DNA of 14,104 bases from a virus, in UHGV virus genome UHGV-0325397. One strand, written 5' to 3'. The notes beneath the pieces were generated by a model. That model was not told the DNA's origin, did not search any database, and saw only the letters and a list, made by a program, of their open reading frames with translations. The position numbers were made by a program, and so were the translations under genes. Below, piece by piece: positions 5,426 through 5,701 of this stretch (position 1 is its first letter; each line of letters begins with the position of its first letter).

Positions 5426-5542
5426 CACTTACCTCGCTGTCAGTTGTTTTGATTTCCGGTAGCCTGCCGCGTAAAGAGCTACGTTTGGCAGGCAAATACT
5501 TCCACTGCATTCATCTGCCTTCTTGCAGCGAAGGATTCCGAG

Positions 5543-5701
5543 TTATGCTGCTTTATCTGCTCTGACGCAACCAGAGAGCTTTAGCGCAATTTTTCGTGCC
5601 AGTCGCTGCTCTTGCATTGCCTGTTCACGCTGAGCCTGTCTGCGTGCTCTGCGGCGATTTCTGGCGTTATCGTCAGCCAGATATGTAATGACTACTGTCA
5701 T
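5543..5701 (-). CDS. Short N-like transcription antiterminator candidate (52 aa) with an arginine-rich motif; ORF not in the supplied track
   Basis: ATG at 5701 preceded by GGAGG with 5 nt spacing; translation MTVVITYLADDNARNRRRARRQAQREQAMQEQRLARKIALKLSGCVRADKAA; the RRRARRQAQ segment resembles the lambda N ARM (TRRRERRAEKQAQ, from memory); sits directly downstream of nutL and pL. Confidence 0.45.
   Translation of the reverse strand: MTVVITYLADDNARNRRRARRQAQREQAMQEQRLARKIALKLSGCVRADKAA

Follow-up and report, generated by a model that had tools for sequence, protein, structure and literature searches.

[quoted passage not shown] When the C-terminal domain (CTD) is deleted, both H-19B N and lambda N are still active at the nut-proximal Rho-dependent terminator tR1, but they no longer work at hairpin terminators or at a second terminator further downstream (Muteeb et al. 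2012, PMC3526286). In these CTD-less proteins, as in the classical lambda N nonsense mutants, the ARM is kept and the RNA-polymerase-binding C-terminus is gone, and all of them are laboratory constructs or mutants.

The closest described relatives of the gene considered here are the N genes of the phages ECP1 (YP_009908573), HK620 (AAK28866), and mEp213 (AFM76387), each of which is annotated as a 273-nt gene coding for 90 aa and stands first in the pL operon behind the same nutL. More distant members of the family PF25694 are the full-length N proteins of phage 21 and of the P22 gp24 type, which have the central segment (LAR...KA.SL) in common with this group but carry a different ARM and hence a different boxB specificity. 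In mEp213 (L003), 2 N genes are annotated in the leftward operon, at 121-453 and 1606-1878, the phage’s own N of 110 aa and, about 1.2 kb downstream, the HK620-type N of 90 aa.

Here, we describe an N gene of the HK620/ECP1 type in a 14,104-nt stretch of viral DNA (UHGV-0325397), which we refer to as the window. The gene occupies the same place as in ECP1, HK620, and mEp213, with 97-99% DNA identity to their N genes, an identical ARM and centre, and a 37-codon tail that is 100% identical at the protein level to the C-terminus of ECP1 N and that shares the motif CLPxVALYAAG(Y/H)RKSKQxTAR with the phage 21 and P22 gp24-type proteins. Codon 53, however, is TCA in the 3 phages, giving a protein of 90 aa, and TAA in the window, giving one of 52 aa. 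This is very probably the ordinary N of an HK620/ECP1-type lambdoid prophage by sbcB in which a single nonsense change would have cost the protein its processive antitermination and left the prophage poorly inducible or non-inducible. Compared with the CTD-less proteins of H-19B and lambda, the window allele is a natural one with another, PF25694-type C-terminal sequence, and unlike those deletions it is cut inside the central segment, so that NusA recruitment may also suffer.

The interrupted N gene and its setting

The N gene lies at 5429-5701 of the window on the minus strand (273 nt, 90 codons) and is interrupted by an in-frame ochre codon. Its start is the ATG at 5701, with GGAGG upstream, from which an ORF of 52 codons runs to the TAA at 5543-5545. 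The product begins MTVVITYLADDNARNRRRARRQAQREQ (full sequence MTVVITYLADDNARNRRRARRQAQREQAMQEQRLARKIALKLSGCVRADKAA), and its arginine-rich motif is NARNRRRARRQAQREQ. The original prediction had described this 52-aa ORF with an arginine-rich motif behind nutL, and had noted that beyond its stop the same frame stays open for 37 codons up to a TAA at the ribosome-binding site of the next gene; we find both at the positions that it gave. The original stop of N is adjoined by GAGG (5432-5435), which is the Shine-Dalgarno sequence for the ATG of the next gene at 5425. The joined product was expected to reach about 90 aa, and this is the length of N in ECP1, HK620, and mEp213. The positions of the gene, its regulatory sites, and its neighbours are collected in Table 1.

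Table 1. Positions in the window of the parts of N, the associated regulatory sites, and the neighbouring regulatory genes.
Feature	Position	Strand	Details
Terminator-like hairpin with T8	4525..4546	-	Intergenic, pL operon, about 1 kb downstream of N; consensus match only
Next gene of the pL operon, hypothetical	5201..5425	-	74 aa, intact; ECP1 gp59; 20 homologues, median 74 aa
Original N stop TAA	5429..5431	-	Same stop as N of ECP1, HK620, and mEp213
3' remnant of N, untranslated	5432..5542	-	37 codons, C-terminal module LGILRCKKADECSGSICLPNVALYAAGYRKSKQLTAR
Premature ochre TAA for TCA (Ser53)	5543..5545	-	Changed base 5544: + strand T here, G in relatives
Translated 5' part of N	5546..5701	-	52 codons; ARM (residues 12-27) and most of the conserved central segment LARKIALKLSGCVRADKAA
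nutL	5810..5849	-	boxA GCTCTTTAACA 5839-5849, 13-nt spacer, boxB hairpin CCCGCCGAAATGCGGG 5810-5825
pL-like promoter	5896..5924	-	TTGACA, 17-nt spacer, GATTAT, TG extension; from a scan, 10/12 matches
cI-type repressor gene	6046..6687	-	213 aa, intact; HTH_3 and Peptidase_S24, read on the identical gene in L004 and L005
cro-like HTH gene	6792..7007	+	71 aa, intact; first of the pR operon
nutR	7015..7056	+	boxA GCTCTTTAACA 7015-7025, 15-nt spacer, boxB CCCGCCGAAATGCGGG 7041-7056
Terminator-like hairpin with T-run	10063..10087	+	Between the replication genes and ninB; consensus match only
Q-like antiterminator gene	13172..13795	+	PF03589

At the DNA level, segment 5300-6050 of the window is 99.3% identical to coliphage ECP1, and the N gene itself is 97-98% identical to those of HK620, mEp213, HK630, and many E. 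coli prophages. When aligned with ECP1 N, only 3 of the 273 bases differ, namely the change from TCA to TAA and 2 synonymous changes. In a four-way DNA alignment with ECP1, HK620, and mEp213, codon 53 is the sole disruptive change in the window gene, and no further damage was found in the tail 3' of the ochre codon. This alignment, which the original prediction had proposed as a check, has the 3 phages reading through the site with a serine codon, and it supports the nonsense mutation that the prediction had raised as one of 2 alternatives.

The surroundings are those of a lambdoid N gene, with an ARM encoded in the first gene of the pL operon and matching nut sites after both pL and pR. N lies behind pL and nutL and beside the cI repressor gene. 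The pL-like promoter is found at the position of the annotated pL of HK620 and drives nutL and N. The nutL match is unique in the window, with 0 expected by chance, and HK620 annotates nutL at the homologous place; its boxB is predicted to form a stem-loop with a 6-nt loop. Following directly on the cro-like gene, nutR carries a boxA and a boxB identical to those of nutL, and both nut sites look intact. An Rfam scan of the window at gathering thresholds returned nothing, and no curated family covers these nut sites. Of the 2 terminator-like hairpins in Table 1, the one on the minus strand sits between genes 4640-4852 and 4193-4504 and is, from its sequence and place, a candidate for a tL that wild-type N would override. 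The other is flanked by ORFs 9747-10037 and 10119-10331 and, ahead of the Q-like gene, takes a place like that of tR2.

The C-terminal module and the N family

If the stop is read as Ser, the repaired 90-aa N matches Pfam PF25694 (N_peptide, ‘Transcriptional antitermination N peptide’) at 58.6 bits, above the cutoff of 27.9, and the DNA is therefore a member gene of this family. The 37-aa tail alone matches the same profile at 48.4 bits (E = 1.5e-12), over profile positions 69-100, while the 52-aa product has no match in Pfam. Thus, the conceptual 90-aa product scores as a family member and the real 52-aa product lacks the C-terminal module; since the latter ends before profile positions ~69-100, the gene is a truncated allele or pseudogene of PF25694, and its product is no functional member. 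The profile PHROG 271, ‘anti-termination protein N-like’, matches both halves of the gene, the 52-aa part with E = 4e-14. NCBIfam gave no match to the 52-aa, 90-aa, or 37-aa sequences. A PDB sequence search returned RNF168 matches only, which are spurious low-complexity hits, and there is no structural template for this type of N.

Both by Pfam score and in an alignment of 13 members, the 37-codon tail is the best conserved part of the N family, so that the unconserved tail that would have spoken against a broken gene was not observed. Ser53 itself is invariant in the alignment of 13 PF25694-type homologues, down to 62% identity, and L71, P72, G80, R82, T88, A89, and R90 are likewise invariant among them. 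The probability that 37 codons remain open by chance had been put at about one in six, and the arithmetic is right ((61/64)^37 = 0.17), but as a measure this figure has been superseded: the stretch is not a product of chance, because of its full protein identity to the C-terminus of ECP1 N and the E value of its PF25694 match.

The second alternative of the original prediction, a naturally short N of about 52 aa whose open tail is a coincidence or a family-wide untranslated relic, is hardly credible and has to be given up. The short ORF does have a good ribosome-binding site and an ARM, but nothing else speaks for it: in isolated phages, whose DNA is 97-99% identical, the gene encodes 90 aa, the tail is the part that matches Pfam most strongly, and the TAA allele occurs in none of the 5,426 E. 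coli genomes. In a large protein collection, N has 333 relatives (clusters), the best 120 of which measure 75-120 aa and mostly 86-101 aa, and no homologue of about 52 aa is found among these best 120. Other roles for the gene or its pieces were considered and ruled out. It is no Nun-like exclusion protein, as the complete gene belongs to the PF25694 type of N and hardly differs from N in free-living phages; programmed read-through is excluded by the sense codon at position 53 in all relatives; and a separately translated C-terminal peptide is excluded by the tail, in which the frame from 5542 to 5432 contains no ATG, GTG, or TTG.

The N family as a whole is modular. The N-terminus is formed either by the HK620-type ARM or by a GTAKSRYKARR ARM, which we take to be the phage 21 type, and is followed by a shared central segment, LARKIALKLSGCVRADKAASLGSL. 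The C-terminus is of the PF25694 type (CLPNVALYAAGYRKSKQLTAR) in proteins of 86-90 aa, and an alternative C-terminus ends GRQKQRGKSIPAYYD in proteins of about 101 aa. The family is thus a mosaic below the scale of the gene, with 2 ARMs and at least 3 C-termini on one centre (clusters P0012, P0031, P0037, P0024, P0057, and P0060); the third type of C-terminus is that of P0037, and the C-terminal junction falls at about residues 58-64.

Several clusters of E. coli prophage N (P0063, P0068, P0069, and P0002) have the same N-terminal 53-55 residues as the window N and are out of frame after them. These are frameshifts, whereas in the window allele one base has changed cleanly to a nonsense codon and the tail is undamaged. 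The P0002 allele (120 aa) is a fusion to the overlapping +1 frame, and among these clusters and P0007 there is an 80-aa form that ends at ...YAAG. Judging from such sequences, N seems to have been inactivated repeatedly and independently in other resident prophages.

Occurrence of the ochre allele

To count the 2 alleles, we used 35-mers built so that every 28-base word spans the variant base. The TCA 35-mer was found at 253 places in 245 of 5,426 complete E. coli genomes and on at least 120 IMG/VR contigs. The TAA 35-mer was found in 0 of the 5,426 genomes and on 0 IMG/VR contigs, and it had no match in GTDB representative genomes or JGI metagenomes. The same TAA is nevertheless present on 4 independent assemblies that are 99.9-100% identical to the window: L004 (SRR20630365, 14.8 kb), L005 (ERZ27274555, 12.7 kb), L008 (ERR8610086), and L013 (SRR32390189). 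An error of sequencing or assembly at base 5544 would account for a single-base difference from all complete genomes searched, but it would have to have struck the same base of the same prophage in each of these 4 data sets, and we consider it extremely unlikely.

For an assembly to count as a carrier, we required a real stop codon and not a contig end inside codon 53. Six of the 10 places with the exact 52-aa protein (L006, L007, and L009-L012) are contigs that end inside codon 53, and they were left out since partial genes mimic truncation; 2 of them end with the wild-type C. An exact look-up of the 52-aa sequence in the protein cluster table found it absent, though it is encoded on contigs.

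One of the carriers, L005, reaches past the integrase into sbcB/tsuB with 99.4% identity to E. coli chromosomes, which identifies the element as a prophage inserted beside sbcB in E. coli. Apart from a patch in L004, each carrier has 0-1 base differences from the window. As far as these sequences go, the TAA allele is genuine but rare and belongs to a single prophage lineage. Since the tail of N is otherwise undamaged and the carriers are almost the same in sequence, we infer that the nonsense event is evolutionarily recent, as both features suggest. The persistence of the TAA in at least 2 slightly different prophage variants fits vertical inheritance and would also be compatible with residual mobility.

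The patch in L004 deserves a separate mention. Twelve of the 14 differences between L004 and the window fall at 13312-13871, which covers the 3' part of the Q-like gene and the DNA just downstream, and this looks like a small recombination patch between 2 otherwise identical TAA carriers.

Expected function of the truncated protein and state of the prophage

A single C-to-A change on the coding strand (G to T at 5544 on the plus strand) has made the ochre codon TAA out of TCA, the codon of the invariant Ser53, and a transcript from pL is therefore translated into a 52-aa peptide. This peptide keeps the ARM for the boxB hairpins of nutL and nutR, together with most of the central segment, and is without the C-terminal module CLPxVALYAAGYRKSKQxTAR, the core of PF25694 and the part that in N proteins touches RNA polymerase and renders it resistant to termination. 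By analogy with the H-19B and lambda proteins, the fragment may retain some ability to counteract Rho close to the nut sites, but processive antitermination would not be expected of it at terminators further away, such as the hairpins at 4525-4546 (-) and 10063-10087 (+). After induction, the recombination and int/xis genes of the pL operon as well as Q would then be under-expressed, and the prophage would be immune, yet poorly inducible or non-inducible.

The step on which this scenario turns, the loss of processive antitermination, is expected from the absence of the C-terminal module taken together with the behaviour of H-19B N and lambda N that lack the CTD. What the central and C-terminal modules do in this family is transferred here from those proteins, whose C-terminal sequence differs. 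On the same analogy, the statement that antitermination is crippled and the prophage defective, with which the original prediction had followed up the nonsense alternative, is a reasonable one. ‘Crippled’ fits better than ‘null’, because CTD deletions keep their activity at the nut-proximal Rho-dependent terminator (PMC3526286).

This residual activity is also the starting point of the only live rival, a leaky or partial function, in which the prophage would remain viable through read-through or suppression of the UAA, or through a fragment that relieves Rho termination at tR1 sufficiently for slow lytic growth. We regard it as improbable. CTD-deleted N is indeed active at a nut-proximal Rho-dependent terminator, but the same deletions fail at downstream terminators (PMC3526286), and terminator-like hairpins lie between the nut sites and both int/xis and Q. 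The presence of the TAA in 4 assemblies and 2 prophage variants argues that the allele is not rapidly purged, and the remainder of the early region is intact; the persistence of the allele, however, is equally well explained by vertical inheritance of a locked-in prophage. A scan for tRNA genes in the window, L004, and L005 was negative, which leaves these sequences without a suppressor of their own. Read-through of UAA in E. coli is very low, which also counts against a leaky function.

Another possibility, and one that we would call very unlikely, is that the ochre allele is a selected ‘lock’, in which the 52-aa ARM peptide occupies boxB and blocks Rho near nut without conferring processivity. 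If this were true, induction would be abortive and non-lethal, and the host would keep its immunity and any prophage-borne benefits. The 52-aa peptide might also hinder superinfection by phages with the same boxB, and the recurrence of an otherwise pristine TAA prophage in several independent samples would be explained.

The broken N does not stand in a generally decayed region. We compared the lengths of 29 genes of the window with ORFs from more than 100 related loci, and only N falls short of its homologues, whose median is 99 aa against its own 52 aa. The other 28 genes have homologue-like lengths and look intact, and the apparent length differences of a few of them reflect the choice of start codon in ORF extraction and not truncation. 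As far as the window extends, then, the damage to the prophage consists of a truncated N beside 28 full-length genes; the late region lies beyond it.

It is well known that regulatory genes of resident prophages can be lost to nonsense mutations, and the present case is one of recent and ordinary pseudogenisation. The N ochre allele raises no new biological question, and its use is in annotation and as a test case. For annotation, the 159-nt ORF should be recorded as a pseudogene of a PF25694 antiterminator that encodes a truncated N, and inducibility of the prophage should not be assumed. As a test case, it represents the opening stage of prophage decay in a clean, natural form: the master early regulator has suffered a single nonsense change, next to an early region that is otherwise intact where checked. 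A one-base repair would give an isogenic pair with which to test what the ARM and centre of a P22/21-type N can do without the C-terminus.

Some further features of the rightward early region are worth recording. A gene with a T5orf172/MUG113 domain (214 aa, 7429-8073, plus strand) lies between cII and the O-like replication gene, and an HNH_3 endonuclease gene (174 aa, 12103-12627, plus strand) lies in the nin region, the latter with no homologue of at least 70% identity among the related loci that were fetched; both are probably mobile nuclease-type insertions. The start codon of the cII-like gene (7116-7394, plus strand) is GTG at 7116-7118 in the window, and ATG in all 33 fetched loci with identical flanks, including the 4 other ochre carriers. 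This private A-to-G change might lower the translation of CII, and it creates an out-of-frame ATG at 7114-7116.
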